Source of the DNA: a virus | Lineage: Duplodnaviria; Caudoviricetes | DNA length: 63,413 nt | Virus record (IMG/VR): IMGVR_UViG_3300017767_000008 | Location: 1 to 63,413 of that record | Direction: 5' to 3' (one strand) | In this document: in pieces, positions 26,601-62,175 of the stretch | Layout: each line of letters starts with the position of its first letter | Numbering within the stretch: the stretch's first letter is position 1 | Translations under genes and position numbers: made by a program | The notes under the pieces: generated by a model | Database searches by the model: none | What the model was told of the DNA's origin: nothing | The model's input: only the letters and a program-made list of their open reading frames with translations

Positions 26601-28307
26601 GACTGCCCGAACACTCCAATTGGCACTCAAGTTGGCGCAAATGGTTGTGCAATCAACGGCGGCGGCGGAACTGGAGGCGGAAACGGTGGCAACCAACAAG
26701 GCAGCGAATTCACAGATGATGAGGACAATGACGGTGTTGTTGACGCATGGGATCGCTGCGACGGAATAGGCGCTATTCCTTCTAACACAGGCGTTGGTGC
26801 TTCTGATTATACATGGTATCATCAAGCCGACCCAACTACAGGCGTGACCCCTATGCAAGCATGGGAAACTTCTCGAACTGTAGTAAATGCTGAAGGATGC
26901 CCTACGCCAAATTTCATTGACCCCGATCCAGAACCATGCAATTCTCCATCCACGCCTGACGTTGGACGTTATTCCTATGAAGACAATGATGGCGACGGTC
27001 AAAAAGATGAAGATTGGATTGACGGAATCGACAATGATGGCGACGGACTTATTGATGAAGATTGGATTGATGACTGTCCTTTCGATGGAGTTGATTTACG
27101 CTACGATGGTCTTTGGACAGGACACGTTCAAATCTCCCAAGAGTCAAGAGCAACAACTGGCGATTCTTGGACTGCCCATCCAGGTGATGCTGCAATCGCA
27201 GAACCGGGAACGGGAGTAGCTTCAGGAAATGCAAAGTACGTTATGAATGCAAGTAGCGAAAATTGGGATGCTATATTCGCTTCTGCACCGGGAGCAACAA
27301 AGGTCGAATCTGCGAATGGAATTCTTGTCAATGACGATCTCCTTAACCAAGAACGCTTTACTTGTTCTGCAACTCAATTCTCGAACTTAGAAATTCGAAT
27401 GTTCATGTATCTATGGGTTGAAGATGAAAACGGCACCGTTGATTCACCATACCCCGGCGAAAGCGGAACAAATGGAAAATGGGTTCCTTACGGATCTGCT
27501 CACTTCGACAATTCGATAGTCAGCGATAATTACGGATGGACTGATGTTAGTTCAAGAATGACTGACGTTGATGCTTCAACTTCACCTGGTACTGATGGCG
27601 ACGGAATTCTAGCAACTGATACTTCACTGGCAGTAGCAATGGGCGAAGGATACTACAAGATTTCTTGCGTTGCTACAATTCCTCATCAAATAGCAACTGG
27701 TCAACAAGTTGACGTGCAAGGTGAAGCATCGACAATCATCGTTGCTGTTGAACCATGCGGTGAAAACGAAACACGCGAAGGAGTCTTCGGGGCTTGTACT
27801 GTTGAAACAACAAGCGGAGGCGGTATTGGTGACGATGCTAGCGAATTCTGGGATGCACTAGTTGGTTCCGCAATCGCCATTGCGGTGTTGATCGCATTTG
27901 TCGCTATTTCAGCGGCTTTGTGGTATATCGACCGTAAAGAAGGAGCAGTTGGAGTTGCAGTAGCGGGTCTCGGAGTTGCAGTAGCATTCTTCGAATACAA
28001 CGTTGCAGTCGATAACCCCGATGTTTGGGGTACACTTTCACACTTGCTAATTGCAGGTGGAATCATAACTGGATTTTGGCCGTATGAAGGAGAACCTGGC
28101 AAAGTAGCCTTAGTATCTCTTCTAATCGGTGTTTGGGGTCTTATTCATCTAATTCAGCCTGAGAATCTTTTGGGTCTTGAAGAATATTATATCCCAGCCA
28201 TTACAGGTATTCCTGCAATTGTAGCTGTATTAGGCTTAGGATTAGGTCTATTTGCAGCAGCGGTTCAATTCCAAGTGGTTGATGATCCAACAGGAATTAT
28301 TGATTGA
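23682..28307 (+). CDS. Large surface/spike-like protein B (1541 aa) with TSP3-type Ca-binding repeats and a multi-TM C-terminus
   Basis: Signal peptide; DTDGDGIIDQFDDCPNT and DNDGDGLIDED repeats; C-terminal TMs; core shared with 18907. Confidence 0.88.
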   Translation: MSRATSKANPAKTILIMFLLLLGTASASYSIDQQNPNSSEVGYDDEYSDGNYTFRANPNTNGENSFGVNTHRGALSSTGVPNAEGMVFDDYNWGQNTIQTSNGMVQADNTFHAKGNDYQSGHGENSILNVTIPGGDPTSAQMILEWNAYDYNPGLYDHVGADVHVQFDGMYDNPVMPATLGPSATETETFQTGIVAGCNQQAVDNIDSQCFMNGWELVLPLCADANCTGSTHDSNLYVGNGIYDLSRVNWAISSDSVDTHLVYTMAPFSGGTNVEFDLFVREGENEDWQEMVDGDARTNTNGKFEYSMVMTGGSNKHYTHEYATPISGITPSASGCDDTPSTLNKTTAETPGNAHEGGEFHCGKLPTTTSIWFKGENIIFSVSVGDLSLVNATSLTHVQYDPSVNFHDNMNSDSGQVNDGNWRVGVDRDGCDVYQYACGTSVQNDHYGQYEIGDGWCGDNSVDWDEGNAACRFSGLTTSIFGLGSDNWDANAWNTAMSAMPVFDTSNDFDGMVIEMSIDKSTFTSQGSTGWYDMALELGLQAPAYTDGAWSPGVLGDGGFFEACYNGYVDVYVLPENVWEYWYQDAKFGYNYFNDPNNYGDKYYIEDDDDWLSEDEFWYNPGTTAGAGSNGNGYQYPHSETSYDYLDGDYWAHPNWLGAQSNPQLFSADMKVNMWHQSLNDEDVPIYDGDVERGITNTGVWDKPGTSGHPDSPEFVDSTFQQINDFWDINLFDDDDVGNSYPAGLYVASQDSALSIFHANTIQLGTATSDFCYDPITGNALNRVDSTGDAIEPNQHIVQDSVSGESVLNIEIPYTALVANAATRTNQQLLDSGWIDSITDSTVGMTILVDVRGRDGPSQEICWGDWATGTNEINDISAYDDDFCLDKNGLVWPTPGHDRNSIPFSDFSADTPCLSNEPQSGQQAGQNPDRAFWCGLNFDTPFSDWESIRLKATSAPYVPPADTDGDGIIDQFDDCPNTPIGTQVGANGCAINGGGGTGGGNGGNQQGSEFTDDEDNDGVVDAWDRCDGIGAIPSNTGVGASDYTWYHQADPTTGVTPMQAWETSRTVVNAEGCPTPNFIDPDPEPCNSPSTPDVGRYSYEDNDGDGQKDEDWIDGIDNDGDGLIDEDWIDDCPFDGVDLRYDGLWTGHVQISQESRATTGDSWTAHPGDAAIAEPGTGVASGNAKYVMNASSENWDAIFASAPGATKVESANGILVNDDLLNQERFTCSATQFSNLEIRMFMYLWVEDENGTVDSPYPGESGTNGKWVPYGSAHFDNSIVSDNYGWTDVSSRMTDVDASTSPGTDGDGILATDTSLAVAMGEGYYKISCVATIPHQIATGQQVDVQGEASTIIVAVEPCGENETREGVFGACTVETTSGGGIGDDASEFWDALVGSAIAIAVLIAFVAISAALWYIDRKEGAVGVAVAGLGVAVAFFEYNVAVDNPDVWGTLSHLLIAGGIITGFWPYEGEPGKVALVSLLIGVWGLIHLIQPENLLGLEEYYIPAITGIPAIVAVLGLGLGLFAAAVQFQVVDDPTGIID

Positions 28308-28648
28308 GGCGGTTTGATGTGTGGAACTTCAGACGTAAGCCAAAACAAAGGCCGATAGAAAGAAATTTCACAGGCGCTCCGCCACGAACGGGAAAATCAC
28401 GTATTAGCAGTCGAAAGACAGGAACGGCAACAAGGAGATTCAATAAAAGAACGTCAAAGTTGCGAAACTCTGGTTTCAAGATGGCTTCGAGCAAGCCTTT
28501 GAATCATCTTTCAGAGACAGAATTTAGAAAATTTGACAAGAAAATCCAAAGCGGCAAATACGAGGTTAGGACATTACTTTCGCCTCCAAAATGGAAAGGT
28601 GAAGCACCCCGAGAATGGGTCATGCTGAGGCGGAGGAAATCTAAATGA
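28304..28648 (+). CDS. Highly basic small protein, possibly with a degenerate tag module
   Basis: Arg/Lys-rich; GKYEVRTL...EWVML resembles the tag. Confidence 0.65.
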   Translation: MRRFDVWNFRRKPKQRPIERNFTGAPPRTGKSRISSRKTGTATRRFNKRTSKLRNSGFKMASSKPLNHLSETEFRKFDKKIQSGKYEVRTLLSPPKWKGEAPREWVMLRRRKSK

Positions 28649-29547
28649 AACCAATGCGACCAGTCGGCCCGAAGAAAGGATACCGTGTATTTGACGGCCA
28701 AGTATTCACTTTAGGATTCTTCAGAACCAGGGGAATTAAGAAACAAGAATTACCAGAGGCTCAGGCTAAATTACAGGCTCAAGCCATTCGAGAGCTTGGA
28801 GTAAATGCAAGAGTTGTGAAAGGCAAAGGATGGGCTGCTGTTTATGTTGCAGAAAAGAAGAAACGATCTAAACAGCCTAAACCATACAAGCCCCAAGTGA
28901 CCAAAAGTACAGGATTCGAAACGCGAAGGGAATGGAAAGTGAATGTTGATGGTCGGAATTTACCTTTGACACAAGGAAAGGCGAAGGTTTTGGAATCATG
29001 GAAATGGGACGTTATGGAACCAGTGACAAAAGAACAAGGAATTGTCAACAGAAAAAATGAATTGAAAAAGGGTATGTCAGTCCGATTTTGGGAAGATAAT
29101 GATTACTTCGAGAAAGAAGGTTTAGGTCAATTAAAAACTTCAGAAAGTTCCAGTCAAATACACGGGGGGGATTTCAAAGATGACTCTCAAATCACTAATA
29201 TTGAAGTGATCAATCTTCAATCACCAGAAGGCATAGAATTTTACCAAAATTTGACAGGCGGAGGATCACAAAAAAATCACCTTCAAGAATCTTTCAAAAA
29301 CTGGTTAAACAATGTTGGGAAAAGGCGTGAAAAGAAATGGAAAAACAACCCATTGTTAGAAGATTACTACGACTTCTTCATCAACGGAACTCGAAAGGAC
29401 CTTGATATATTTGTTATTTCTATTGACAATCAAAGGGCATTTTGGTCGCCATCTCAAGGTGATTTCGCCAAGCGAATGACTAAGGCAACTGAAGAGTTCA
29501 AAGGTTGGAATCGTTTCACAAGTGATGGGAGGGGCAAAAGAGCATGA
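28645..29547 (+). CDS. Tag-module protein of unknown function
   Basis: N-terminal YRVFDGQVF...AQAIRELGVNARVVKGKGWAAVY. Confidence 0.8.
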   Translation: MKPMRPVGPKKGYRVFDGQVFTLGFFRTRGIKKQELPEAQAKLQAQAIRELGVNARVVKGKGWAAVYVAEKKKRSKQPKPYKPQVTKSTGFETRREWKVNVDGRNLPLTQGKAKVLESWKWDVMEPVTKEQGIVNRKNELKKGMSVRFWEDNDYFEKEGLGQLKTSESSSQIHGGDFKDDSQITNIEVINLQSPEGIEFYQNLTGGGSQKNHLQESFKNWLNNVGKRREKKWKNNPLLEDYYDFFINGTRKDLDIFVISIDNQRAFWSPSQGDFAKRMTKATEEFKGWNRFTSDGRGKRA

Positions 29548-30869
29548 ACCGCAATTATCGAAGAGCAAGGCGATTTGGAAATAACACATATCGTCTTTTG
29601 AGGACTTTTCCTCACGTCGATTCAAGGGGCAATCTTAGATCGCCCGAAGCTACAAAACTTCAAGCCGAACAGCAAGCCGATTTTTACAGAAACAAAGGAT
29701 TCAATGCAAGGGTTGTAAATTGGGTCGGAGGCTCTGGGATTTACCTTGGCAGAAGAAACCCAAGAACCTATTACAAAACAAAAGAAGAAGCAAGAAAGCA
29801 ATGGATGAAAGATATTGAACAAAATGATTACAATGCAGCAGCATTCGGTGTAGGAATGTCATTTTCTAATTCAGCCCAAGCCGGAGATTCTATCTTCTCT
29901 GCAGAAGCGGCAGAATTGGTTCCCAATCCAGAATACAAGTACAAAAATTCAATGTCAACCCTCGAAGATGCCTTAGAAGAAAGCAACGTAATTCCGGTCC
30001 ACATAGCAGAGCCGAAAGATGAGAATTATTCTAATGGTTTCGGACGCTCCCTTCGAATGGCTGGCTCACTTGATGAAGTCGGAAATTACGGGCAGATTGG
30101 TTGGGGTCCAGGTGAAATTCCACAAAAAAGAATGCCTCAAAAAATTGACAATCAAAGGTCGAGATTCAGAGTTGTGCTTTCTTTCAATCAAACCGATGAA
30201 CAAGGCCCAGGGGTCGGAGAAAGGCCGACTTATGCTTTCGCTACCAAAGAAGCAGCAATGAAATTTTCAAACAAACTAAAAGAAATGATTGACAAAAATG
30301 GATATTACTTGGAGGGAGGAACTTTAGAAAGCGGGGGAATGACGGTTAGATCACCTGCATTCGCCATCCCTGCAAATCAAATTGAAGTCGAGATTGTCAA
30401 AGAAGAATCAGGATTTGCTCAAAGGGCAGCAGATGAAGCTAGGGGGAGCATCGAAAGAAACCTCGATAGCCTTTTTCCATTAGGAAATGAACCTCCTGGC
30501 TTGATGGAAAATAGAAGGATGGCTGAATTGGACGTTGATTTTTCTAAGTTGGAAAAGGCTGCAAAGGATAAAATCGAACAGATGAAAAGAAGAACATCTA
30601 AAGTGGCGTTGACGGATTTTAGAAAATGGATGAAAGGCGAAGACAATTCATCAAGAGAAAATTCACTGCCATCAGCACCGCCACAACAGAATCTTTGGCC
30701 GATCACTGGAGCCGATGTTCTTTACATCGAGGACAAATTGCGTGAAAGGGATGGCTTCAATGAAAATATATCGCTTGCTGACAATATCAAAAACATGGTT
30801 GGAATGCAAGCATATCAAGAACTTATGGATTTCAACCAGCGGGCGAGGGAAAATCGGAGGGGTCTATAA
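29544..30869 (+). CDS. Tag-module protein of unknown function
   Basis: N-terminal RRFGNNTY...QADFYRNKGFNARVVNWVGGSGIY. Confidence 0.8.
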   Translation: MNRNYRRARRFGNNTYRLLRTFPHVDSRGNLRSPEATKLQAEQQADFYRNKGFNARVVNWVGGSGIYLGRRNPRTYYKTKEEARKQWMKDIEQNDYNAAAFGVGMSFSNSAQAGDSIFSAEAAELVPNPEYKYKNSMSTLEDALEESNVIPVHIAEPKDENYSNGFGRSLRMAGSLDEVGNYGQIGWGPGEIPQKRMPQKIDNQRSRFRVVLSFNQTDEQGPGVGERPTYAFATKEAAMKFSNKLKEMIDKNGYYLEGGTLESGGMTVRSPAFAIPANQIEVEIVKEESGFAQRAADEARGSIERNLDSLFPLGNEPPGLMENRRMAELDVDFSKLEKAAKDKIEQMKRRTSKVALTDFRKWMKGEDNSSRENSLPSAPPQQNLWPITGADVLYIEDKLRERDGFNENISLADNIKNMVGMQAYQELMDFNQRARENRRGL

Positions 30870-32836
30870 TGGCCGCTAGAATAAGGCGATTCAGAATTAA
30901 GGGAGATCCAACCCGATTTGACATATTTGGACTCGGCTGGAACAAAGCAAATATGCGGCGGGCTGCTGAAATAATAAGAAATAACGGATATTATGCAAGA
31001 GTTATCCCAAGCGGTTTTGACAAGACTATGAATTTACAAAAATATGCGTTATTTTACAGTCCAAAAAAGGCAACCCAAAGAGTAAATTTGGATGAAGCAT
31101 ATACAGGAATAGGACTGTCAAAAGATAGTTGGCGGTGGTTGAGGGAAAACAGTAGCAAGGTTGACCATAGGAAATTGACACCATCAAATCGAATGTTGCC
31201 TCAAAGAACTTCAACTTGGATTTTTAACAGACGATTGCCCGATGAAAAGTTCAATGAAAATGATTGGGATAAAGCACTTGCAGATCCCGATGGTGAAGAA
31301 CTGAGCAAGATGGATAAGGTGATTGCGAGAAGATTGGATATGAGCGTTGAAAAGTACATCGAACAAAGAGATTACGGGGAATCTGAAGCCCTCGAAGAAG
31401 AGGAAAGCGATGAAAATTATGAAGAACCTTGGTGGGAAAAAGAAGGAATGTATTACGATCCATTAGAACGATTTACAAAAGGAACAATAGCCGATTTAGA
31501 AGCAAGAGGAAAACAATCAGAAGAAATGCGCATGGAAGAAAAAAAGAACCGGGGAACTCAAACTGTAGCTTCAGAAGAAACATACCAGGGTGAAGGTTTC
31601 GATGATGACGACGAAAACGAAGAAGAAGATAATTGGACTGGCGACGACAAATACATGGAAATGATGGATTTTATCGGATACAATGATTCAGTATGGCGCG
31701 GTTTGAGCCCAACGATCCTAATGGGCTATCAGGGCAGCGTGTACGATGAACACGTCTTAGACGAAAAATCCTATGAAAAATTGTTGGATGATGCCGAAAG
31801 GCACAAGAAAAAATCACAAAAAAATGCTGAATTGTTTTTCTCTGGTTCGGGCAGGTTTTCGGACTTTGCCAAGTATGCCGAACGTTTGGGGGCTCCAAAA
31901 GAGAAAGACATTATCGCATTGCCCGTAGTATCACTCCGATATTGGAATGATGATAAAGAGCAATTGGAGTACCAACCGGATGATGACGGGCAAGACCGTT
32001 CTGCAGCATTGATGGTGAATGCAATCGGCAGTTGGTATTTGCACCCCAAAGTGCAAGAAACACTTTTTGATTTGCATTATGGAACGGGAGCCAAAGACTC
32101 TATTTTTGCTGCTGAAATGGCTATGCTACAATACGTCTTTAGTGGCGGAGGCGGATACCAAGAATTTTCGAATGCCGTCACTTGGAATGATGATATGCTA
32201 AATGAAAGAGTCCATGAGAATATATTGAATATTGGAGAATGGGAACTCCCACGACACGGCGTTAAAACGCCCGAAGTTGTTGTAGTCGGAACAGACATAG
32301 GTTTTTTCGACAGCAGAGGCCAACAACTCGGAATTAGAATAACTCCGGACACGGATGATGAAGTTGGTTGGGATCCATTCGGGGAATCAATCTCAGGAAC
32401 AAAATTCCCTCCATTCATCGAGTCCTTGTTCAAAGGACAGGAAGATTGGAACACTTCTGCAGTGAGTCAGGTATATTGGCGCGGTGAGCGAGTGTATGGA
32501 GATAGTGATCCAGCGAGAGGCGAAGTTCGAGAATGGCCCGATGAAACATTCTTCTTACTCAAAAATGACTTGACGGGCGAATTGAGCCCTGGTGAAATCG
32601 CTGGAATTTATGTCGGAAATACCCTAAACCTAAGCAAAGAAGAAGCACAAGATTATGTCAACAGGCACGCAACTTATGGTGCCGATTACGAAAACGACCA
32701 AGGCATAGATTACAGAGTATATGAAAATGAAGATTTCCTACAAGAAGCCAAAGACAGGAACGCATTAACTGTAAAACAATTCGCCAAGAAATACAAGTTA
32801 TCACAATGGAAAGAAGCAGAATTGAAACGTAAATAG
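30869..32836 (+). CDS. Tag-module protein with a very acidic body
   Basis: N-terminal RAAEIIRNNGYYARVIP...YALFY; D/E-rich tracts. Confidence 0.8.
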   Translation: MAARIRRFRIKGDPTRFDIFGLGWNKANMRRAAEIIRNNGYYARVIPSGFDKTMNLQKYALFYSPKKATQRVNLDEAYTGIGLSKDSWRWLRENSSKVDHRKLTPSNRMLPQRTSTWIFNRRLPDEKFNENDWDKALADPDGEELSKMDKVIARRLDMSVEKYIEQRDYGESEALEEEESDENYEEPWWEKEGMYYDPLERFTKGTIADLEARGKQSEEMRMEEKKNRGTQTVASEETYQGEGFDDDDENEEEDNWTGDDKYMEMMDFIGYNDSVWRGLSPTILMGYQGSVYDEHVLDEKSYEKLLDDAERHKKKSQKNAELFFSGSGRFSDFAKYAERLGAPKEKDIIALPVVSLRYWNDDKEQLEYQPDDDGQDRSAALMVNAIGSWYLHPKVQETLFDLHYGTGAKDSIFAAEMAMLQYVFSGGGGYQEFSNAVTWNDDMLNERVHENILNIGEWELPRHGVKTPEVVVVGTDIGFFDSRGQQLGIRITPDTDDEVGWDPFGESISGTKFPPFIESLFKGQEDWNTSAVSQVYWRGERVYGDSDPARGEVREWPDETFFLLKNDLTGELSPGEIAGIYVGNTLNLSKEEAQDYVNRHATYGADYENDQGIDYRVYENEDFLQEAKDRNALTVKQFAKKYKLSQWKEAELKRK

Positions 32837-32906: not shown

Positions 32907-34757
32907 ATGAGCCGTCCATATCGAACCCCCGATACAGGAAAAAGAAGGCCAAAAAGAGGCTACATTCCTAGCAGCCAATATCCTCAACGTCGATATAGGA
33001 CATTCAAAAACAAGAACGGATCAAGGACGCTTTTCATTGGAACTTCATCATTGGTGATGAAAAGCAAGAAAGATGCAAACAAAAGAGCAGAAGCTCTGAG
33101 AAAGAATTACAATTTATTGGTTCGAACAATCAAAACGAAAAACGGGTGGCTCAATTTTGTTTCACCGAATAGGATGAGAATATACAACAGAACAATAATC
33201 CCATTCCAAAATTTCCAAGACGCAACATTCGGCATGGATACTCCAAGATTGGTCGATTGGTTAAGCAAACAACCAGAATATGTATCCGAATTATCTTGGC
33301 AAGAAAACCTTCGACGCATAGGCGGTGATGAAGCGCTCAACACGCTAGCACAACTACAAAACCCGGAAGGATTCATGGGCCGCATGAAGAAGCAGGTCGA
33401 AACAGAAAAGGCGATTGCTACAGGATGGAATCAAATGATGATTGACCAGGGATTCGCTAAAGAGGGAGAACTTTCAACAGAAACCGCAACTCAACTGAAA
33501 GAATCGGATACCGTTTTTGATATTCTCGGAATAAACGATGAAAAACCCGATCAACAATTAAACAATGATATTTTCAATCAATGGTTCGATGAAGGTTTAG
33601 AGCAGTTCCCTACGTCTTCACAAGAAAGGAAAAACAAGACAAAGGCGCTTGAAGATATTCTCGAAGATAGAATTGCTAGCGAACCTGCGACACAATCAAC
33701 TCCATTATCAAGGGAATTGTCCGATCAGTTCTCAAGTATTTTCAATGAGGCAATATGGGGCGAAGATGATACAATCACAAGACCAGACGGAACCGTTGTT
33801 ATGAAACCGATGTTGGAACAAGACATGAGCCCAACTTTAGGATTCTCACAACCTAGCATGGAATTCATATCGAAATCAGGCGGCTCAAGGGGGTTGTGGA
33901 CTTTTCAGCCCGTTGAAGCTGGAATGTGGGGTGATCCGGAAATGCAATTAGAAACACGAAGAGCATGGCTTGTTTCGGATTCTTTAGGAACGGTCATTCA
34001 AGCGTATCCCTATCAAGAAGGCGAAGGTGCTAGGGCTGAAGCGGACGCTTATGAAGCAATTAGGCAAGCATATATCTTTGCTACTGAAGCATCGGCATCC
34101 GAGCCGTACACAAGAGCCGGATACCAAAAACACGGCAGTTTATCTCCTGGCGTTGCCGTCATTGATGGAAAGGTGACAATTAACCAGTATGGAAAATGGT
34201 TGGGATGGGACGTGAATCATACAACAGATGATGGGCGACTTCAATCGGGCGACTATACTTTGTTTATTGACCAAGAAGTTTTAGATCAAGATGACCCACA
34301 AACAACTGCTGCAATGACACGAAATTGGATTTTACCAAAATGGCTCCCTACATCTGGAGGGATGCCGCCAAAAGACCCGATGAGGGATAGGTTGGAGGCA
34401 ATCATTGGTCAAGAAGGAATCACTTCTGCAGAGGTTCAAGCCGCGCAAGTTAGGGCAAAAGTCGCTACAGAACAAGGAGCAACCGCACAAGAAATTCTTG
34501 ATGCAATGAATCTCAATAGATACATCGTCAAGCAAAGAAGCGGACAACCAGTGACTAAATTCACACCTGATTACAAGTCTGCAATGAGAACCATGCAAGG
34601 ATTCACAGCTCAAGACGTTGGGGCTCAAACATTGTTTGTTTATCAAGCGCCATCATCTGCTAATGGATCCATCAAAGAAGAGCAGAGTAAATTGTATGCT
34701 GAACTCCAGTGGTCGCCTGACAGAAGAGAATGGCTTGTTAGTTATGCGGGGCAGTAA
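32907..34757 (+). CDS. Tag-module protein of unknown function
   Basis: SKKDANKRAEALRKNYNLLVRTIKTKNGWLNF; preceded by the shared promoter element. Confidence 0.8.
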   Translation: MSRPYRTPDTGKRRPKRGYIPSSQYPQRRYRTFKNKNGSRTLFIGTSSLVMKSKKDANKRAEALRKNYNLLVRTIKTKNGWLNFVSPNRMRIYNRTIIPFQNFQDATFGMDTPRLVDWLSKQPEYVSELSWQENLRRIGGDEALNTLAQLQNPEGFMGRMKKQVETEKAIATGWNQMMIDQGFAKEGELSTETATQLKESDTVFDILGINDEKPDQQLNNDIFNQWFDEGLEQFPTSSQERKNKTKALEDILEDRIASEPATQSTPLSRELSDQFSSIFNEAIWGEDDTITRPDGTVVMKPMLEQDMSPTLGFSQPSMEFISKSGGSRGLWTFQPVEAGMWGDPEMQLETRRAWLVSDSLGTVIQAYPYQEGEGARAEADAYEAIRQAYIFATEASASEPYTRAGYQKHGSLSPGVAVIDGKVTINQYGKWLGWDVNHTTDDGRLQSGDYTLFIDQEVLDQDDPQTTAAMTRNWILPKWLPTSGGMPPKDPMRDRLEAIIGQEGITSAEVQAAQVRAKVATEQGATAQEILDAMNLNRYIVKQRSGQPVTKFTPDYKSAMRTMQGFTAQDVGAQTLFVYQAPSSANGSIKEEQSKLYAELQWSPDRREWLVSYAGQ

Positions 34758-34759
34758 TT

Positions 34760-35351: not shown

Positions 35352-35792
35352 ATGGTTGCGTGGGCTCGAATGTTAGATGGAAAGCGATATGTCCTTTCGG
35401 ATCATTCACTTGGAAAGATGGATGCACAAAGAATACAAAAAAGGCATAAGCAACTTGGGCTAAATGCCCAAGTTATACGTCATGCTAATGGAAAGTATGC
35501 CGTTTATCGAAGATGCGGTTCTATAATGAATCGAGCAAATCCTCGAAAAAGGAAAAAGCAAATCCACGTCAACCAATTTATGATTCGAAGCAATCTAAAA
35601 GTTCCAGTTGCGGAGCGAAGGCCACCTATCACAATACAAACGAGCAGAGGCAGCATTAGGGCAACCAATGTGACAATGCTTGGAGATTCGAAGGTGAAAT
35701 ACACACCAGACCAAAAATTGTCTTGTGGAGCTTCAGTGTATATTGAAACAGACGATCCAATTGAACTCGATGATTGTGCTAAAATGGAGTGA
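35352..35792 (+). CDS. Tag module fused to a conserved phage hypothetical domain
   Basis: RMLDGKRY...GLNAQVIRHANGKYAVY, then IHVNQ...PPITI...KLSCGASVYIET. Confidence 0.75.
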   Translation: MVAWARMLDGKRYVLSDHSLGKMDAQRIQKRHKQLGLNAQVIRHANGKYAVYRRCGSIMNRANPRKRKKQIHVNQFMIRSNLKVPVAERRPPITIQTSRGSIRATNVTMLGDSKVKYTPDQKLSCGASVYIETDDPIELDDCAKME

Positions 35793-35796: not shown

Positions 35797-35934
35797 ATGA
35801 CTGCTTACGATGAAATGACCTTAGAGGAACTGATTTCTTGGAAATCACACTATCTAAATGAAATAGCAGAAATTGATGCAAATATCGAACCTAAATTGAT
35901 AAAAATAGATTTAGAGGTGATTCCACTTGAATGA
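35797..35934 (+). CDS. Small acidic protein (45 aa)
   Basis: GGAGTGA SD before ATG 35797. Confidence 0.5.
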   Translation: MTAYDEMTLEELISWKSHYLNEIAEIDANIEPKLIKIDLEVIPLE

Positions 35935-45101: not shown

Positions 45102-46316
45102 ATGGCGAAGCGTAAATCGAAAACACGGTCCTCGCGCTCGACAATAAAAGTTCAGAGTGAAAGGATGCGTAGGCTAAACGCTGAACAACAAATTGACGTT
45201 CTAGCAACCAGGAGAAACGTCACGATGGATGACGCTTGGGAGATATACCGGAGAAATGGATATACTGATGGTCAAATTCGGGAAATGATGCTAGGCAGAA
45301 TGAAAAGACGAACACGAAAAATCGACGGAAAACAATTCACTGAAGTATCTCCGCCTCAATCTAACAAGCAAGCAGCAGAAGCGCTCGCACAAATGATCCG
45401 TGACCGAAGCGGGGCAAATGCAAGACTAGTCGAAACAAAGAAAGGTTGGTCGGTATTTTCTTCTCAATCAGCAAGACAACGCTCCTACAGGGCTTCTTTA
45501 TCGGATAGAATTGCAGCAGATGAAATGTCAAGCCGATCCAAAGCGACTCCAAAAAAAGATAATCGCAATTGGCTTCAACGTTTGACGACTCGAAGGCGAA
45601 AAACCGGAATGCAATCAAGAAAACAAGAACTCGATGCAATAGAATTAGACGATTTCAAGAAATACAGGGAGAAACTTCTTCGAGAAGGTAAATCAGAAGG
45701 AGATGCCTACAATTCAGCGAAGAAAGCAGCAGAACTTAAACGAGAAGAAGCAGAAAAAATGGATGGCAATTCTGCGGCAGCAATAGAACTGAAAAAACAA
45801 CTTAGGATTGCTAAAGAAAGAGAAGACATTGCCAACTATCGGGCAGCGAGGGAGAGTTATAACGAAGGCATTCCACTATCGACCGTTGCTAAATACAACA
45901 GTTTGGAGATCGCAACGACTGGAACCGGTCTAGCTGTAGGTGCTGGAATTGCTGCAACTTCAATAGCAACTGCTGGCATAATTCCAATCGCAGCCGTGAT
46001 TGGATTCTTTGGAGCCAAGGCAATTAGAAACAATCCATTAGGGATTGATCTAAAACGTGGAGTCAATCGGACTCTGGATGCAGTCGATAATGGAGCAACA
46101 GGAATTGTTGAATCAGTGAGAGTTTCGAAGGATAATGGTCAGCCCAATATCTTGACTCTTGGACTTCTAAGGGAGCCTAACAGACAAAAACCGAAAAAAC
46201 CCAAATCACTAAAACAAATTGAGCGAGAAAACAATCGCAATTTGAAGAAAGAAGCAAGAAAACGCGCAAAAGAAATCAGGTTGGAGGCTCGAAAAACAAA
46301 AGAGAGTAGCGATTGA
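45102..46316 (+). CDS. Basic tag-module protein with a Gly/Ala-rich hydrophobic hairpin
   Basis: RKIDGKQF...IRDRSGANARLVETKKGWSVF; GTGLAVGAGIAATSIATAGIIPIAAVIGFFG. Start ATG 45102 inferred from promoter spacing. Confidence 0.8.
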   Translation: MAKRKSKTRSSRSTIKVQSERMRRLNAEQQIDVLATRRNVTMDDAWEIYRRNGYTDGQIREMMLGRMKRRTRKIDGKQFTEVSPPQSNKQAAEALAQMIRDRSGANARLVETKKGWSVFSSQSARQRSYRASLSDRIAADEMSSRSKATPKKDNRNWLQRLTTRRRKTGMQSRKQELDAIELDDFKKYREKLLREGKSEGDAYNSAKKAAELKREEAEKMDGNSAAAIELKKQLRIAKEREDIANYRAARESYNEGIPLSTVAKYNSLEIATTGTGLAVGAGIAATSIATAGIIPIAAVIGFFGAKAIRNNPLGIDLKRGVNRTLDAVDNGATGIVESVRVSKDNGQPNILTLGLLREPNRQKPKKPKSLKQIERENNRNLKKEARKRAKEIRLEARKTKESSD

Positions 46317-53658: not shown

Positions 53659-53830
53659 CATCCAACGGCAACTGAAGCGTGCTGAAATCAGAATGCGATC
53701 AAGGCGAATGCAGATGGCATCAATCTCCGCCGAGAACAAGCGCTACAATCATTTGATGTGGTGGGTTCCTGGCAACGTTGGTATTGTGGATGCAAAAGGA
53801 CAAATTGGAGTCGATGATCGGGTTGAGTAA
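53372..53830 (+). CDS. Basic Cys-leader protein, paralog 2
   Basis: MGSCGC...CTCNNC leader; same NPVTG module. Confidence 0.75.
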   Translation: MGSCGCSGGMKDGRACTCNNCMKKRGYQKRFNSEPNPSDWITDSSSRQKELQRLRQLNAEEMRMNERRRMDLKRTKFVLNPVTGNMIQNTSRNRQSIQRQLKRAEIRMRSRRMQMASISAENKRYNHLMWWVPGNVGIVDAKGQIGVDDRVE

Positions 53831-54488: not shown

Positions 54489-56921
54489 ATGGCGAAGGCT
54501 CCGGGCTACATTCCCTCAACCAAGGCGGGCTTGACCAAAAAGGCCGGTTATTTCATTGTCGATAAAAATACAGGCACTATGGTTGATCGTCGTTTGTTCG
54601 ACGTGACATACAGGGATAGCGGCTTGATGGTATCAAAAGATGAGCAGAAAGGCGATTATACGGTGACTGCAGGTTGGACTGCAGAAACCATAGATTCCAA
54701 AGACAATCCACTAAAACGTAGTGCTTTGAAAAGTGCTTTGGGTTTGCGTTTTGCTGATGAAACCGTAAGTTCATGGAGAAGGGCAGAAGATGTTTCAGAC
54801 GAAGAAATCTTAGAAAAGGTTTCAAAGAGGTTTGGGATAAGTGGCGGAGGTAGTTCTTTCGGCGGATATTCATACAAAGGAGGTAAAAATCCATCATTCA
54901 AGCTGGATAGGTTTGCAGAAGATCTATCAGGCGACCCCGAAAGAGATTCAAAGGAATTCAAGGGAAAACAATTGGCAGACTTGGTTCGAGAATCATACGG
55001 GCTAAAGAGTGGCGTTAGAACGCTGCCATTCAAATTTCCACGTTTATCTCCTAACGAAATAGCGTTTGAAATACCCCCAAAAGATATGTGGATTTTTGAC
55101 CAAACAGAAGATTTGAAGCCTAACGGTGCAGAATATCAATCGTTAAGGGAGCATCTTATTCGAGATTATGTTCGAGAATACTACGAGGCAAACAACAACA
55201 AAAATTGGAATGACCAGGGGCCTTTCAAGCATTCAGTTCAAGAAAGCGTATCAAATAATTCGGGCTCATGGCGCGTACCTGATTTCGAAACTTTAGGTCT
55301 TTTCAACAGCGTAGTCGCAGACGACTCATCGTTTTCGGATGCTGTCGATGATTGGGATTATCATTTCCCATCTGAAACCGATCCAACGCCAAGAAAACCA
55401 ATCATTGCAGCGCCATATAGAGTTGAAGTTCAATGGGCTACTGAAACACGATATTGGCCCGAAGACGGGGCTGAAGGGCGAAGTCCGGGCAAAGGCTGGC
55501 TGTATTCTGATGGTCCACACCCAAAGAAGCCCGATGAAAGGCCCAATTCTTATCCAGCATGGACTCTTGAAGAGGCAAAAGAGATTATGAATTCCGTTAA
55601 ACAATACGATCCAGACAATGTGACCGTAATGGAAATCAGCGACGAGCATCTTCAGAAATGGGCGGTTCTAGTAAATCGAAGTGGAGATTACAAACTCATC
55701 CAAGATGCCGAAAACAGAGAAGATTACAGAAAGCAGATTTTCAATGGCATGGAAGATTTAGCCGAACTAGCGAATGGATTTATCGAAGATATTCGGGTTT
55801 ATGAAATGAGAGGTGATGAAGGAAAGGACCAATTTTTTGAGTCTGCTTCTGAAGGAGAAGTTGATTTCTTAGACCTTTACAATGATGGAAATTTTGAGGT
55901 CAAAAGCCTAGACAAATTTGGCGGCGTGATGATGAGCAGTATGGTCGATTTCAACTTGAACGCAGAACCAACAGATGACGGAAAGGGTGGCGGTTGGATG
56001 CTCGATGGAAAGGTCCAAGATGGAGCGCCACCGATAAAAGATGAAGTCAAGAAAGTCATTGAAGAATATGATGCATACAAGGCCAACATGAAAGATTTAC
56101 CATATCGTGACCCTTATCATCAAGATGATCCGGTTCATTCATTCGAAGCTCTTTACGAAGCAAACCCCGTTGGCGGTGAGAAAGATAGTACAGACAAAAA
56201 GATAGTAAGAACAGGTTATGGTGCAGAACTTCAACTGCCTGATGGTCATAACTACCCTGCCGACTGGGATCAAGACGATGTTTTAGATTCATTAGAGGCT
56301 GGAAATTATGGCCGCTTTCTGCCGAGAGTGTTTGGAAATGATGCCCGCCGACTATGGTATTCAGCAGAGCCTCAAATTCACGGTATGCCGATTGGTGAAT
56401 TGACCCTAAATCCTAGTGTTAAGGAGAGTAATGATGGTTGGGATTTTACAAAGACTTGGGAAATCAAAAATCAAGGCGGAAAGTATGGTCAGCCATACAG
56501 AATAAGGAGCAATAATGATTTCATAATAAAAAAACCGCCTCATACAAGTGGTTTTGCTACTGGTCAAATCCAGCCTGATTTTCAGCACCAAGGTTGGAAA
56601 AACGGACAAGGCCCGCCATATCCAGGTGATGCAAAAAACAAAAACAAGCCTCATGCATTTAGGCGGATATATCGAGATGCTAGAGGCCGAGATTTAGAAT
56701 ACACGTCGAACAACACAAATTCTGGTTTGGTTATTTGGAAAGACCAAGAAAGCGCTAGGCAATCGGCAAGAATCGCAAGAAGTCGCGGTTGGTTGATCCG
56801 AACTGTTCCTATCGGTCCAAAAACTAAACGAAGATGGGTCAATTTAGGAAATAACAAACTCTTGAAAATGAAAGGTGTTTTGAAGAAGAATCAACCCCAA
56901 TACTGGAGGAAAAAACAATGA
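54489..56921 (+). CDS. Large acidic protein with a C-terminal tag
   Basis: 810 aa; DQESARQSARIARSRGWLIRTVPIG...WVN. Confidence 0.8.
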   Translation: MAKAPGYIPSTKAGLTKKAGYFIVDKNTGTMVDRRLFDVTYRDSGLMVSKDEQKGDYTVTAGWTAETIDSKDNPLKRSALKSALGLRFADETVSSWRRAEDVSDEEILEKVSKRFGISGGGSSFGGYSYKGGKNPSFKLDRFAEDLSGDPERDSKEFKGKQLADLVRESYGLKSGVRTLPFKFPRLSPNEIAFEIPPKDMWIFDQTEDLKPNGAEYQSLREHLIRDYVREYYEANNNKNWNDQGPFKHSVQESVSNNSGSWRVPDFETLGLFNSVVADDSSFSDAVDDWDYHFPSETDPTPRKPIIAAPYRVEVQWATETRYWPEDGAEGRSPGKGWLYSDGPHPKKPDERPNSYPAWTLEEAKEIMNSVKQYDPDNVTVMEISDEHLQKWAVLVNRSGDYKLIQDAENREDYRKQIFNGMEDLAELANGFIEDIRVYEMRGDEGKDQFFESASEGEVDFLDLYNDGNFEVKSLDKFGGVMMSSMVDFNLNAEPTDDGKGGGWMLDGKVQDGAPPIKDEVKKVIEEYDAYKANMKDLPYRDPYHQDDPVHSFEALYEANPVGGEKDSTDKKIVRTGYGAELQLPDGHNYPADWDQDDVLDSLEAGNYGRFLPRVFGNDARRLWYSAEPQIHGMPIGELTLNPSVKESNDGWDFTKTWEIKNQGGKYGQPYRIRSNNDFIIKKPPHTSGFATGQIQPDFQHQGWKNGQGPPYPGDAKNKNKPHAFRRIYRDARGRDLEYTSNNTNSGLVIWKDQESARQSARIARSRGWLIRTVPIGPKTKRRWVNLGNNKLLKMKGVLKKNQPQYWRKKQ

Positions 56922-57607
56922 GCAGACAAAATGATAGAATCATCAAAACCCTCAAGCGAATGAAAAGTGTTGACTTGTCTGACCCCGTTGCTAGGAATTA
57001 TCTTGTCACCCAACTATCTTCATACGCCGGTCCAAAAAGAGAAAACGTGGCTGGAGCAATTCAAGCATACGCAAACACGCAAAAAGACAAGGTGGTTAAT
57101 ACTCGAAAGGAAAGAGAAGTGTTGGCGGTTATGATTACAAGAGAAGCCAACAGAGCTAGAACTTCTGCTCCTTTTACAAGAGGGTTAGCAAGGGCTCGAA
57201 AGCAATTCAAATCAAGAAGGTATAATTTTCAACAATCTCAAGGCAAAGGTGTAAGGAAATTTGACGGCTGGAAAGGGTTTAGGGTTGCAGATGCAAATAC
57301 CCAATTTGACGCTCGAAGACTTGCTCAATTCATACGAAAAAACATGAATAACAACAAGGTTAGAGTGGTTGAATATCAAGCAGGTAAAAAAACCCATTAT
57401 TCTGTTTATTCTGCCAAACCAGTCACCGTCGCTAACAAAAGTTATGTTGATGTATTAGCAAAAGGAAAGGACCAGAACTCTAAGAATTTGATGAAAAGGG
57501 TTCAACGTCCAGGGGAGAAAAGACGGCAGTATTTAGATCATCAACCAGTGATTTTAGTCACGAAAAAGAGGATTCCCGAATTGGGCTTGAGAATGAGGAT
57601 GAGGTGA
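56918..57607 (+). CDS. Highly basic tag-module protein
   Basis: RKFDGWKGF...ARRLAQFIRKNMNNNKVRVV...YSVY. Confidence 0.8.
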   Translation: MSRQNDRIIKTLKRMKSVDLSDPVARNYLVTQLSSYAGPKRENVAGAIQAYANTQKDKVVNTRKEREVLAVMITREANRARTSAPFTRGLARARKQFKSRRYNFQQSQGKGVRKFDGWKGFRVADANTQFDARRLAQFIRKNMNNNKVRVVEYQAGKKTHYSVYSAKPVTVANKSYVDVLAKGKDQNSKNLMKRVQRPGEKRRQYLDHQPVILVTKKRIPELGLRMRMR

Positions 57608-57611
57608 AATA

Positions 57612-59024
57612 ATGGAAAACATTGCTAGATCGGCCAGTGGCCGTTTGAGAAACTACGGCTCGATGAACAACAAGAAATTCAAGGCTATTCTTGATATGTC
57701 AAACACTTTCAAAGATGACAAAGAGGCATACAAGGCAGTCAAGGCTGAAGCCAAAGAAAGAGGCTATGATGATAAACAAAAACAGCCCGTTGCGAACGTT
57801 GACTTTGATTCAAAGAGATCCGCTGCTAAATCAAATAAAGTCAATCAAACAGAAATGGCTCCGAAAATAATGAAGGCTGCTAGGTACAAGGGAAAGAAGA
57901 ATTATTCCGGGTGGCTTATGAGCGAAAAATATGATGGATACAGGGCAATTTGGGATGGTGAAAAGTTCATTTCTAAAAATGGCAACGTCTTTTACGCTCC
58001 AGAAGAATTTACAAAAGGATTTCCAAAGGTAAGGTTGGATGGTGAACTTTGGGCTGGCAGAGAACAGTATCAAAGAGCCGCTTCAATCATCAGAAGAAAA
58101 CCCAAAAGCAAAGATTACAACAAGGACGAATGGAATGAATTGAAGTATGTTGTATTTGATGCTCCAGGACTTTACAAAGGATATTCCGACGTGAAAACAT
58201 TGGCTCAAGATGAGTTCGGTGCTTGGAGTGGCGGGGTTCGAGAATACATGAAAGCCGAAGATTTTGAAGAAGCAATGGATCTAATGCGAGAATGGAAAAG
58301 TGGAATCGCTAAATTGCCTGATGAGAATTGGAAAACAAGCGGATATTACAATCTCGACGGCACGCCGACTGAAGCATTCGGTGGCGGTTGGTTAGGTACG
58401 AAGATGATTCCATCGACAGACAAATTGATTTTAGCTCCGCAAGTGGTTGTTGAAGACGGTTCTCAAGAATCAATTTTAGCCGCTATGGACGACTTGGTGA
58501 TGGGGGGCGCTGAAGGGATTATGCTACGCGACCCTAAATCTCCTTACTCTTCAGGTCGAAAATCTTCAATAATTAAAGTAAAGCCATCATGGACTGAAGA
58601 GGCAAGAGTCATTGGATATGAAGAAGGATTGAATAGCAATGAAGGAAAAGTTGGATCACTGCTAATGGAATCTTTAGCCCAGCCTGGATTGAAATTCAAA
58701 CTTGGAATCGGTTTGACTGATGCAGACAGGTTGAATCCGCCACCAAAAGGCGCTATTGTCGAATACAAATTCCGAGGTAAAATGAAATCTGGTAAGCCTC
58801 GACACGCTTCATTTTTGCGAGTTCGAAAGGACATGAACAGAAGAACTTCTGAATCTATTCGCCACATCAATAATCAGCAATTTAGAGGCATTGGAGCTAC
58901 AAGAAGCAAAACCTACGCTAGAATGGTTGCTGATAGAGTGAGGACGGTTGCTAAAAGAAATGCAAGGGTCATCCCACGAAGCGGGGGATTCGGGATTTAC
59001 GTCAGCAATAGGCGGCGATCTTGA
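57612..59024 (+). CDS. lig: ATP-dependent DNA ligase (minimal NTase + OB type) with a C-terminal tag
   Basis: SEKYDGYR, LDGELW, YVVFD, EGIMLR, KVK, OB-fold GKPRHASFLRVR; then RHINNQQF...RNARVIPRSGGFGIY. Confidence 0.93.
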   Translation: MENIARSASGRLRNYGSMNNKKFKAILDMSNTFKDDKEAYKAVKAEAKERGYDDKQKQPVANVDFDSKRSAAKSNKVNQTEMAPKIMKAARYKGKKNYSGWLMSEKYDGYRAIWDGEKFISKNGNVFYAPEEFTKGFPKVRLDGELWAGREQYQRAASIIRRKPKSKDYNKDEWNELKYVVFDAPGLYKGYSDVKTLAQDEFGAWSGGVREYMKAEDFEEAMDLMREWKSGIAKLPDENWKTSGYYNLDGTPTEAFGGGWLGTKMIPSTDKLILAPQVVVEDGSQESILAAMDDLVMGGAEGIMLRDPKSPYSSGRKSSIIKVKPSWTEEARVIGYEEGLNSNEGKVGSLLMESLAQPGLKFKLGIGLTDADRLNPPPKGAIVEYKFRGKMKSGKPRHASFLRVRKDMNRRTSESIRHINNQQFRGIGATRSKTYARMVADRVRTVAKRNARVIPRSGGFGIYVSNRRRS

Positions 59025-59596: not shown

Positions 59597-61023
59597 GAAA
59601 ATACCGCAAATCATCGGTTATTGGGCCAACCAAAGAGCAGAGAAAGCAAGCGCCTTTCAAGAGGAATAAGCACGTTGACAAATACTTCAGAGATCCATAT
59701 TGGAATAAGTATGGGAATAAGGTCAGAGGCCGTTCAAAACACAGTCTGCGGAGATTTCGCAACCTTAACGGCAAGACATACATTGCAGATGTACGGAACA
59801 TAGATTCGAACAAGGAACGCGCTAAATCTTATGCTGCCAAAATGCGAAAAGTTGGTTGGAATGTTCGAACAATAAAGACGAAAGTTAAGTCCCTAAAAAG
59901 ACCCTGGCCGCCATATACTGTAGGTCCGCCCGGCTCATATCACGATCAACCAGGTGCTACTGTATGGCTCAATTACATTTACAATCCAAACGCCACCAAA
60001 TATGCTAGGAGAAAATACGATGCAAGGCTATACCGAGGAAGCATGAATAGGGGCAGATCGGGTTTGAAGGGAAATCAAATCACCAATGCACGCTTTTTGA
60101 CCAATCAACCGATAATGGCACAATGGTATGCTTCAGCGGAGAATGATGAAGCAAAAGAGTTCTCTGCTAACTTGAATAGATTCATTCCAACTGGAGAAAG
60201 ACGTAGTGGAGGCCGTTTGTGGGTTTTAGAAAATGATAACCCGCCCCTCGACCTAAATCCGCAGGTTTTCGACGGCAGTTCTGGAGTCGAATACACCGAT
60301 GAACAAATTGGTAAATTCAAAACCGGACCGTATGCAGTCGGCAACGTTTATCTTGGTGCAAAAAACGATGAAGCGAATATGATTGCTGGAGAACGTTTAG
60401 CAAAGCACCTTGACATTGATGCTTTCATGGATTCATACATCAAATACGGCGGAGGTTGGGATGGTGTGCAAGGAGTAAGCAACAAGGAGGATTGGTTGAA
60501 AATGAAAGCAAATAATACTGAAACTGAAATCGCAGCCATGATCATAACTTCGATGGCTGATGATCTTGATAATTCTTACCAGGTGGTCGGAGAAAATCAT
60601 TTCACTATTTTTGAAAAGGCCATGCTCGATGCCGGACTTGAATATCTGGTATTTCGAGATGTTAGCCCTCGAACTGCTTTTGCTGAAGGACGATACCCTA
60701 GCATGAGCATATTTTCCGACCCAATGGTTTTATCGAGAATACCAAATGAAGTTGTAAATTTGATGGATGAGAAAAGTCTTGGTGAATACGTCGAAGTGAC
60801 AAACATAGACGATCAAGAAGTTGACCCTGCTATTACGCTTTTTAGACTCGATGATGGCTCAGGACGGGCAGACAAACTCAATGTTGTCCGGGTTTTCGAA
60901 GATCAAGACTACATCAACGGGTATGACGATAAGCGAAAATTAGCGAAAGACTTGGGGGTTAATACGGAACAAGTTGCCAGTTATGAAAACGTATGGGATG
61001 GAAAAATAGAGTGGGATTTTTGA
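59593..61023 (+). CDS. N-terminal tag plus putative ADP-ribosyltransferase-like domain
   Basis: RNLNGKTY...MRKVGWNVRTIKT; LYRG...FLTNQPIMAQWYA...GGRLWVL...PLDL. Confidence 0.6.
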   Translation: MRKYRKSSVIGPTKEQRKQAPFKRNKHVDKYFRDPYWNKYGNKVRGRSKHSLRRFRNLNGKTYIADVRNIDSNKERAKSYAAKMRKVGWNVRTIKTKVKSLKRPWPPYTVGPPGSYHDQPGATVWLNYIYNPNATKYARRKYDARLYRGSMNRGRSGLKGNQITNARFLTNQPIMAQWYASAENDEAKEFSANLNRFIPTGERRSGGRLWVLENDNPPLDLNPQVFDGSSGVEYTDEQIGKFKTGPYAVGNVYLGAKNDEANMIAGERLAKHLDIDAFMDSYIKYGGGWDGVQGVSNKEDWLKMKANNTETEIAAMIITSMADDLDNSYQVVGENHFTIFEKAMLDAGLEYLVFRDVSPRTAFAEGRYPSMSIFSDPMVLSRIPNEVVNLMDEKSLGEYVEVTNIDDQEVDPAITLFRLDDGSGRADKLNVVRVFEDQDYINGYDDKRKLAKDLGVNTEQVASYENVWDGKIEWDF

Positions 61024-61089
61024 TTGAAACCATGCTTTTGAACATGGATTAACCGTATTTGTCAAAAAGGATAACAGAGAGCGTCAGAT

Positions 61090-62175
61090 ATGGTCAGAAG
61101 GTACGACGTGCGAGGCACGAAACAACCTTTTGTGGAAAAGCATTCTTCTTCTAATCGAACAAAAGCAGAATCTATTGCTGCTGCTGAAAGAGATGGCGGC
61201 AACTTAGCGAGAGTAGTTCCGAAGGGTCAAGGCTGGAAGGTTATGACGAATCCTAATCGTTTAGGAAAGAAAGTAAAAGGAATTTTCAATCGCAAAAAAG
61301 CACCAGAGCCTCGAATCGAAGTTGGCAACAAATCTCAAGCTACAACGGTTGGAAAAAGAACTTACAACAAAGAAAAAGACGTAGCGCAAGAAGACTATGA
61401 TCGGATAAGGCGATTTTCATTTATTGTTGGAACGGTACACTTGATTTCTGGTTTAATCATGGTTGCTTTCGCTAACACTGATTTTGTGATTTCGATAATC
61501 AGCACTTTCGCTGCAGGTCCTCCTGGTTGTTTCGAATCGGGAGAATGCACACCCTTTACTTTGGTTAATTATGATGCTATTTTGGCTTATTGGGTTGCTA
61601 CTTTTTCTTTGCTATCTGCATTTTTCCATTACTTGACGATTGTTCCGGGCGTGTTTGAGATTTACCAGCGCGACTTAGAGCGTGGGAGAAATTTGTTCCG
61701 TTGGGTCGAGTATTCATTGTCTGCAACTGTTATGATTCTAATTATCATGCTTCTTTCTGGATTAAACAACTTAACTGCGCTAGTCGCTATCGCTGGAGCT
61801 AACGTAGGAATGATTCTCTTTGGTTGGCTTGGCGAAACAATGAACCCAATAGATCGGGAAAAAACCGATTGGACCCCTTTCATCTTTGGTTGCATTGTAG
61901 GTGTTTTCCCCTGGATTGCGATATGGGGTTCTTTGATTCTTAACCTAGAGCAGTTAGGCGTTGGTTGGGATATGATACCGACGTTTGTTTGGTGGATCAT
62001 CATATCACAATTTTTCTTATTCCAATCATTTGCATTCAATCACGCATTCCAGTATGGAAACTTGTATCCGAATTATCTTTATGGCGAAAGGGTGTATATC
62101 TGGTTGTCATTGATTTCTAAATCGCTTTTGGCGTGGTTCATTTTCGCTAATACTGCGATATTGGGTTCATTGTGA
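61090..62175 (+). CDS. Heliorhodopsin with an N-terminal basic tag extension
   Basis: TM1 VHLISG, TM2 SAFFHY, TM3 RWVEYSLSATVM, TM7 GERVYIWLSLISKSLLAW. Confidence 0.93.
   Translation: MVRRYDVRGTKQPFVEKHSSSNRTKAESIAAAERDGGNLARVVPKGQGWKVMTNPNRLGKKVKGIFNRKKAPEPRIEVGNKSQATTVGKRTYNKEKDVAQEDYDRIRRFSFIVGTVHLISGLIMVAFANTDFVISIISTFAAGPPGCFESGECTPFTLVNYDAILAYWVATFSLLSAFFHYLTIVPGVFEIYQRDLERGRNLFRWVEYSLSATVMILIIMLLSGLNNLTALVAIAGANVGMILFGWLGETMNPIDREKTDWTPFIFGCIVGVFPWIAIWGSLILNLEQLGVGWDMIPTFVWWIIISQFFLFQSFAFNHAFQYGNLYPNYLYGERVYIWLSLISKSLLAWFIFANTAILGSL

Follow-up and report, generated by a model that had tools for sequence, protein, structure and literature searches.

Why should a virus fuse one and the same small, strongly basic module to 18 proteins that are otherwise unrelated? 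This question is raised by the IMG/VR record IMGVR_UViG_3300017767_000008 (Duplodnaviria; Caudoviricetes). The entire record of 63,413 bp, which has direct terminal repeats and an estimated completeness of 100%, was analyzed and is called the window here. A first-pass annotation of the sequence had named 18 proteins carrying a common element and had read it as an address label for co-packaged proteins. Profile analysis found a module of ~55 residues on all 18 named proteins, in 19 copies, as had been annotated. Below, the module is also called the tag, the proteins are called carriers, and the remainder of each carrier is called its body.

One module on 18 proteins

A loose sequence pattern yielded seven sites, six of which are true copies of the module. 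A profile was then built from five seed copies and iterated over 713 six-frame open reading frames (ORFs), which converged at 18 domains in 17 ORFs. In leave-one-out runs, each of the 17 proteins was scored with a profile from which it had been excluded; the scores were 10.8-46.8 bits, and every protein exceeded all 200 of its own shuffles (top shuffle, 8.6 bits). Thus, the claim that the copies align as one element was borne out. An independent profile, made from 73 free-standing metagenome proteins and zero window sequences, was run on the same 713 ORFs and recovered 15 of the 18 carriers with domain E values (E) of 1.8e-15 to 1.2e-6. Except for the copy in ORF 8006-9109, all copies described here are on the plus strand.

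The other three carriers contain divergent copies and belong to a 'VRT' variant. The copy at 56658..56843, at the C-terminus of ORF 54489-56921, has an E of 6.7e-8, a leave-one-out score of 10.8 bits and an E of 0.019 with the independent profile. The copy at 51415..51576, at the C-terminus of ORF 49531-51600, was missed by the independent profile; its E of 7.6e-7 comes from a profile that contains it, and its leave-one-out score is 12.4 bits. The third, at 37748..37978, has an insert and lies at the C-terminus of ORF 35927-38014; a profile that includes this copy gives it an E of 1.5e-8, the independent one only 0.14. All three are supported by window-derived profiles, and the first two have leave-one-out support. 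For ORF 35927, the sole profile built without its own copy matches weakly (domain E 0.19), which makes it the weakest of the 18. ORF 38011-40350 is the carrier with two copies, and its internal one (38995..39126) is also weak, with an E of 0.005 and of 0.047 with the independent profile. This internal copy is non-basic (net charge +1) and sits in a stretch highly conserved across five orthologs. A degenerate copy that had been suspected in ORF 28304 is absent (best domain E 1.6). As previously annotated, the block of small genes at 0.4-8 kb has no copy detectable by the module profiles, including the independent one.

The fold of the module was predicted both alone and within a carrier. For the copy at 45288..45482 (residues ~70-130 of ORF 45087-46316; E 1.8e-18), AlphaFold2 with a 91-sequence alignment produced a model with a mean predicted local distance difference test score (pLDDT) of 87.8, in which two strands (residues 6-9 and 12-16) are followed by a helix (24-38) and two further strands (42-47 and 50-56). 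The copy at 29544..29747, at the N-terminus of ORF 29544-30869 (E 8e-15), has the identical strand-strand-helix-strand-strand order in residues 8-69 of the full-length model (pLDDT 84-89), and a low-confidence break follows at residues 72-76. Because the predicted fold is identical alone and in this carrier, and is then followed by such a break, the module can be regarded as a separate domain. The same carrier is predicted to have a second strand-strand-helix-strand-strand element at residues 206-288 (pLDDT 83-90), which has no profile similarity to the module.

Conserved positions of the module include an Arg and an aromatic residue flanking a Gly-Lys turn, Ala-x3-Ala-x3-Arg-x2-Gly in the helix, Ala-Arg-Val in strand 3, and an aromatic residue in strand 4. 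Together with its Lys/Arg-rich flanks, the module has a net charge of +10 to +20; many carrier bodies are acidic (-52, -34, -27 and -25). It is N-terminal in ten carriers, C-terminal in seven and central in one, in addition to the internal second copy in ORF 38011. The N-terminal copies start at residues 1-20 and a hydrophobic leader is absent. Inspection of the flanks of the copies by eye revealed neither a Gly-Gly boundary nor a conserved junction motif. These sequence features and predicted models support the view of the module as a single, strongly basic domain that is portable and folds independently. Its presence on unrelated proteins at either terminus agrees with the first-pass annotation.

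Carrier proteins and their relatives

When the module was masked, an all-against-all BLASTP comparison of the 18 bodies produced 0 non-self matches at E<=0.01, so the partners are otherwise unrelated, as had been claimed. Five bodies belong to five different Pfam families. The GP88-family body (Pfam GP88, residues 27-256) is that of ORF 8006-9109 on the minus strand, with the module in its C-terminal part (8093..8272; E 8e-14; independent profile 2.2e-11). A TusA domain (residues 258-328; Pfam TusA 4.8e-18) is found in ORF 40343-42847, which has its module at residues ~110-180 (40673..40876; E 6.1e-13). In the SNF2/ResIII helicase (ORF 42811-45021; Pfam SNF2-rel_dom and ResIII), an N-terminal copy with a loop insert is present (42886..43116; E 6.2e-18), and the ATP-dependent DNA ligase (ORF 57612-59024; Pfam DNA_ligase_OB_2 and DNA_ligase_A_M) has a C-terminal copy (58827..59021; E 3.8e-14). 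The fifth is a heliorhodopsin (residues 106-355 of ORF 61090-62175; Pfam Heliorhodopsin 1.1e-70) with the module at its N-terminus (61120..61272; E 1.1e-11). These families and the HExxH motif at residue 87 of ORF 38011-40350, the sole protease-like motif seen, agree with the partner labels proposed earlier; the ART-like and HsdS-like labels were not confirmed. The second copy of ORF 38011-40350 is at its C-terminus (40156..40347; E 3e-20; independent profile 1.8e-15), and a profile of the orthologs of this ORF found no match in the PDB.

The remaining carrier bodies have no Pfam match at E<=0.01. Besides those described above, they include four carriers with the module at or near the N-terminus: ORF 28645-29547 (28654..28872; E 1.4e-15; independent profile 1.1e-11), ORF 30869-32836 (30869..31078; 9.4e-13; 2.7e-7), ORF 32907-34757 with a VRT variant (32985..33179; 9.6e-14; 1.5e-7), and the shortest carrier, ORF 35352-35792, of 146 residues (35352..35534; 4.9e-17; 7.1e-11). 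Two more VRT variants are located at residues ~575-617 of ORF 46393-48429 (48106..48228; 3.9e-12; 3.9e-8) and residues ~50-100 of ORF 59593-61023 (59734..59886; 9.3e-13; 1.7e-9). The copy at 57239..57421 lies in the middle of ORF 56918-57607, a protein of 229 residues (9.2e-10; 2.8e-7). PHROGs searches on ten carriers gave zero matches, and Foldseek found nothing similar to the full-length model of ORF 29544, whose mean pLDDT is 63.

The carriers also share an unusual composition. Cysteine accounts for 20 of 9,691 residues (0.21%) in the 18 tagged proteins versus 167 of 10,573 (1.58%) in 43 untagged ones; 12 of the 18 tagged proteins are cysteine-free. Histidine is also reduced (0.9% versus 1.6% in untagged proteins). 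Thus, the tagged proteins are a class with a common make-up beyond the tag. The low cysteine content could reflect an oxidizing particle or passage in an unfolded state.

A search of 1.84 billion representative proteins with a profile of the 18 copies found 1,510 proteins at E<=0.001, including 14 at E<=1e-10. We classified 153 relatives, namely the best 150 of the 1,510 plus three cluster members. Free-standing modules (<=90 residues) account for 77 of them and small tandem pairs for ten; in the others the module is N-terminal (29), C-terminal (32) or elsewhere (5). The free-standing relatives are Lys- and Arg-rich proteins of 50-90 residues, one of which is near clusters labelled viral in a language-model look-up (0.85-0.86; a lead only). 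Many of the fused relatives are orthologs of window carriers, with 27-91% identity. One of them, P0146, has an N-terminal module and a C-terminus 61% identical to the untagged ORF 59021-59596 of the window. DUF5754/Tlr6f is matched by one untagged window ORF, and DUF5754 also by one fused relative; these are probably ORF 59021 and P0146, in which case a protein that is untagged here seems to be tagged there. No relatives of the module were detected in GenBank phages by tblastn or in the IMG/VR contigs scanned.

Three metagenome loci contain the same gene block in the order of the window, with 13 (L002, 22 kb), 11 (L003) and 2 (L001) tagged ORFs; cysteine makes up 0.13% and 0.17% of the tagged ORFs of L002 and L003, respectively. 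Of 49 ortholog pairs, which are not independent of one another, 37 show stronger conservation in the module than in the body. Such conservation supports the view that selection maintains the module in related viruses, and does so as strongly as for the enzymes to which it is attached. In L002, body segments are swapped between tagged carriers (11985-13526, 14829-16544 and 18633-19613): a segment corresponding to residues 742-826 of ORF 40343 belongs to a distinct, separately tagged protein, a further protein combines an ORF 32907-like segment with a ligase-like tag, and a counterpart of the TusA segment of ORF 40343 is lacking. In these comparisons, bodies are reshuffled, always among tagged carriers.

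Conservation is clearest for the heliorhodopsin fusion. Twenty-eight heliorhodopsin homologs of at least 330 residues (including P0176-P0201) cover the N-terminal extension. They are mostly on contigs of 59-71 kb, which suggests that many complete relatives of this virus exist. The module was detected on 23 of the 28 (E<=1e-3), and by eye a degenerate form is recognizable in four of the other five; the fusion is kept down to ~42% identity. None of 92 shorter, cellular-length heliorhodopsins has the module. Heliorhodopsin N-termini face the cytoplasm, as stated in the part of the published account used here (PMC7049168). Given this orientation and the lack of a leader on the N-terminal copies, the tag should work inside the cell or particle.

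What the module may bind

The domain is unnamed: Pfam, NCBIfam, PHROGs and the PDB hold no family for it. Pfam had zero matches on the 18 copies even at E<=10, and Pfam and NCBIfam searches of ten relatives returned only sub-threshold SPOR, WhiA-LAGLIDADG and dsrm matches. PHROGs gave only five weak, unannotated matches on 91 module sequences, and the PDB profile search returned nothing below E 0.06. Foldseek found no match for the module model at E<=0.001, with best E values of 0.15 (PDB) and 0.06 (BFVD); the weak top rows are eIF1/SUI1 and LAGLIDADG half-domains (I-DmoI and WhiA). A characterized domain with an unrelated role, which would have undercut the address-label idea, was therefore found neither by Foldseek at this threshold in the two databases nor by Pfam.

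The first-pass annotation had noted a resemblance to half of a SPOR domain. SPOR domains consist of ~70 residues in a double strand-helix-strand unit, sit outside the cytoplasmic membrane and bind denuded peptidoglycan glycan strands. A true SPOR-type domain would thus bind cell-wall glycan and bring the carriers to the envelope or septum of the host. The module does resemble SPOR in having a helix followed by a beta hairpin and a similar Ala/Gly/Arg pattern. PF05036 matches cover the helix and hairpin in five of ten free-standing or tandem relatives (E 0.0003-0.06), loosely and below threshold apart from one at 21.5 bits versus the Pfam gathering cut-off of 21 bits. SPOR also matches one of 53 fused relatives (3.5e-5) and 28% of the members of one neighboring Atlas cluster, and the CwlC SPOR domain appeared in the PDB profile search at E 0.33. 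However, 0 of the 18 window copies match PF05036 at E<=10. The modelled module, about half the size, has a single helix and four strands in ~55 residues, with another N-terminal strand order and no double SPOR unit. It is strongly basic and cytoplasmic: signal peptides are absent, heliorhodopsin has the tag at its cytoplasmic end, and the carrier bodies include cytoplasmic DNA enzymes. SPOR membership was rejected on sequence, model and location, and a SPOR-type function is extremely improbable. The likeness itself appears to be real, yet thin.

We propose that the module binds a polyanion, as its charge, the variability of its basic flanks and the many free-standing copies suggest. The polyanion would most likely be viral double-stranded DNA, and a module fused to either end might then tether its carrier to the viral genome. 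As this DNA condenses, all 18 carriers would collect on it and enter the particle together with it, which would make them available in the next cell from the outset. Such cargo would comprise the ligase, the helicase, the zincin-like protein, the TusA protein and many proteins of unknown kind, and heliorhodopsin, with its N-terminus in the cytoplasm, would link the membrane to the nucleoprotein via its tag. We favor this reading, in which the module binds nucleic acid and, as a tether, places proteins on the packaged genome for delivery, but only tentatively and with somewhat less than even confidence.

Gene layout is relevant to this proposal. Genes in the window are packed head to tail, frequently with 4-base overlaps, and tagged genes make up 46% of the genome. 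The tagged block begins, via such overlaps, straight after the gene of a 1,541-residue protein with membrane segments predicted at its N- and C-terminus. In three runs from other studies labelled viral metagenome, a 20-kb stretch divided into 30 bins is covered by contigs of at least 99% identity in 30, 27 and 23 of these bins; bins without cover in single runs carry no evidential weight. The charge of the module, the cytoplasmic tag of heliorhodopsin, the translational coupling of the block to the gene of the giant membrane-anchored protein, and the depletion of cysteine all fit packaging, as circumstantial evidence.

Several points weigh against the packaging proposal. No capsid, portal, large terminase or scaffold was recognized among the window ORFs by Pfam or PHROGs, so the type of particle is not given by the genes; there is one weak PHROGs match to 'terminase small subunit' (5e-5), whose ORF was not assigned. 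The label viral metagenome is the record's own and is no proof of a particle. The predicted fold has no significant match to nucleic-acid-binding structures (Foldseek, PDB and BFVD), and basic charge alone is a weak predictor. Moreover, 18 proteins of 146-834 residues would be a large load per particle, and binding, packaging and delivery are all steps that we infer. The ligase and helicase bodies act on DNA anyway, and therefore a DNA tether need not mean packaging.

The same circumstantial evidence equally allows a purely intracellular DNA tether, which during infection would keep the enzymes of the virus at nucleic acid of viral or host origin, or within a replication compartment, with none of them packaged. 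Charge and fold class suit this explanation as they do the favored one, and a tether of this kind would be natural for the ligase and the SNF2 helicase. In addition, contigs from one oligo-dT RNA library cover 28 of the 30 bins of the block, although DNA carry-over is possible and transcription is not proven thereby. However, it explains neither the tag on heliorhodopsin or TusA, nor the shared loss of cysteine, nor the coupling of the block to the genes of giant membrane-anchored proteins, and we consider it unlikely.

If the proposal of a tether to packaged DNA is extended to the virus as a whole, these would be marine viruses of 59-71 kb without a conventional capsid, whose DNA is packed as nucleoprotein in a membrane. 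Approximately 18 large proteins, which take up half of the coding capacity, would be attached to the genome via a DNA-binding tag and delivered as a toolkit by membrane fusion, and the tagged heliorhodopsin would form a physical link between the packaged genome and a light sensor in the viral membrane. This picture is speculative, and we regard it as quite improbable in its entirety.

Other features of the window concern the form of the genome and its host. The last ORF (62277-63413), which encodes a TSP3-repeat protein (Pfam TSP_3), crosses the terminal repeat into 7-384, with 39 residues identical at both ends. Because this gene spans the terminal repeat, the record appears to be a circular permutation of a genome ~120 bases shorter. 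GGAG, GAGG or AGGA is present <=20 bases upstream of 23 of 61 starts versus 9.6% of random sites, and GGTGA(T) is also frequent upstream of starts. The GGAG-type start signals point to a prokaryotic host. Nothing was found in support of a Marine Group II archaeon, the host suggested earlier: the named shorter heliorhodopsins, including the nearest cellular ones, are from Acidimicrobiales, Actinomycetota and Ilumatobacter, not archaea. The module was not found in 304 (3 + 301) sampled genomes of the class holding these nearest cellular heliorhodopsins, and the positive control (own record) gave 18. The one lead toward archaea is ORF 9867-11234 on the minus strand, a 455-residue protein with a Walker A motif at residue 106. 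A language-model look-up placed it near Zot/AAA ATPase clusters of viruses and Thermoplasmatota (scores 0.90-0.92; a lead only), and it is a candidate assembly or packaging ATPase. A second motif, shorter than the tag (N-P-x-T-G-x-x-I-Q-N-x-x-R-N-R-Q-S-I), is common to ORFs 12159-12839 (minus strand), 52814-53371 and 53372-53830, which are untagged and otherwise different, one being a DUF6884 protein. The 34 ORFs that are small or untagged also include a DUF932 protein and a membrane protein of the TspO/MBR family (4.8e-30).

Comparison with known address labels

Targeting sequences of the phage T4 type are removed by a prohead protease at a conserved site. No prohead protease family was detected in the Pfam and PHROGs scans of the window ORFs. 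As described in the portion of PMC3012670 on which we draw, the capsid targeting sequence of T4 is a short N-terminal peptide that directs internal proteins to the scaffolding core. Both systems have one conserved label on diverse unrelated proteins, which in T4 are thereby packaged along with the DNA and carried into the next host (same portion of PMC3012670). In contrast to the T4 peptide, the label here is a folded domain of ~55 residues, placed at either end or in the middle.

A second precedent is MuF (SPP1 gp7), which the relevant part of PMC5512222 presents as a virion-associated anchor fused to effector domains, along with the polyvalent proteins of phages and conjugative elements. According to the same part, such an anchor domain is joined to many enzymatic domains, and the likeness extends to a metallopeptidase-like protein and a helicase, and perhaps to a location beside presumed late genes. 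In the window, the tagged block adjoins the gene of the 1,541-residue membrane-segment protein, which may be a virion protein. The difference is that 18 separate genes each have their own tag here, with one or few body domains per carrier. The MuF family was not among the Pfam matches of 64 ORF scans.

These precedents lend weight to another explanation, in which the module is a protein-protein address label that docks on a viral hub protein (for example, a portal, a scaffold, a matrix layer or the inside of a shell) and DNA is not involved. Both precedents work in this way, as far as the cited parts of PMC3012670 and PMC5512222 go. The portability, conservation and gene order of the module are shared with the favored reading, and its position-specific core (Arg, Gly-Lys, aromatic, Ala-x3-Ala, Arg, Gly and Ala-Arg-Val) exceeds the needs of a non-specific charge patch. 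However, no hub candidate was recognized in the window. Free-standing and small tandem copies, 87 of the best 150 relatives, are hard to explain as labels without cargo, and the variable Lys/Arg-rich flanks resemble non-specific polyanion binding. We therefore find docking on a protein hub rather improbable and retain the tether to packaged DNA as the preferred reading.

If the tag is an address label, its presence would be a sequence rule predicting particle-borne proteins in a large group of uncultured marine viruses, and the tag would also be a new portable domain with which foreign proteins could be loaded onto packaged DNA. The unnamed family comprises ~1,500 representative proteins, many of them free-standing, small and basic, and the conserved heliorhodopsin fusion is a rare handle on the cytoplasmic-side contacts of viral heliorhodopsin. 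No description of such a tag was found in the literature searched, the reach of which does not include supplements. A term search of a paper on Poseidoniales viruses (PMC11706807) was likewise negative. The statement in the first-pass annotation that no description was known holds for the domain, which is absent from Pfam, NCBIfam and PHROGs. It does not hold for the principle, which is already known from T4 and MuF in the parts of PMC3012670 and PMC5512222 consulted here. Thus, compared with these systems, the domain and its layout are new, and the principle of an address label is not.

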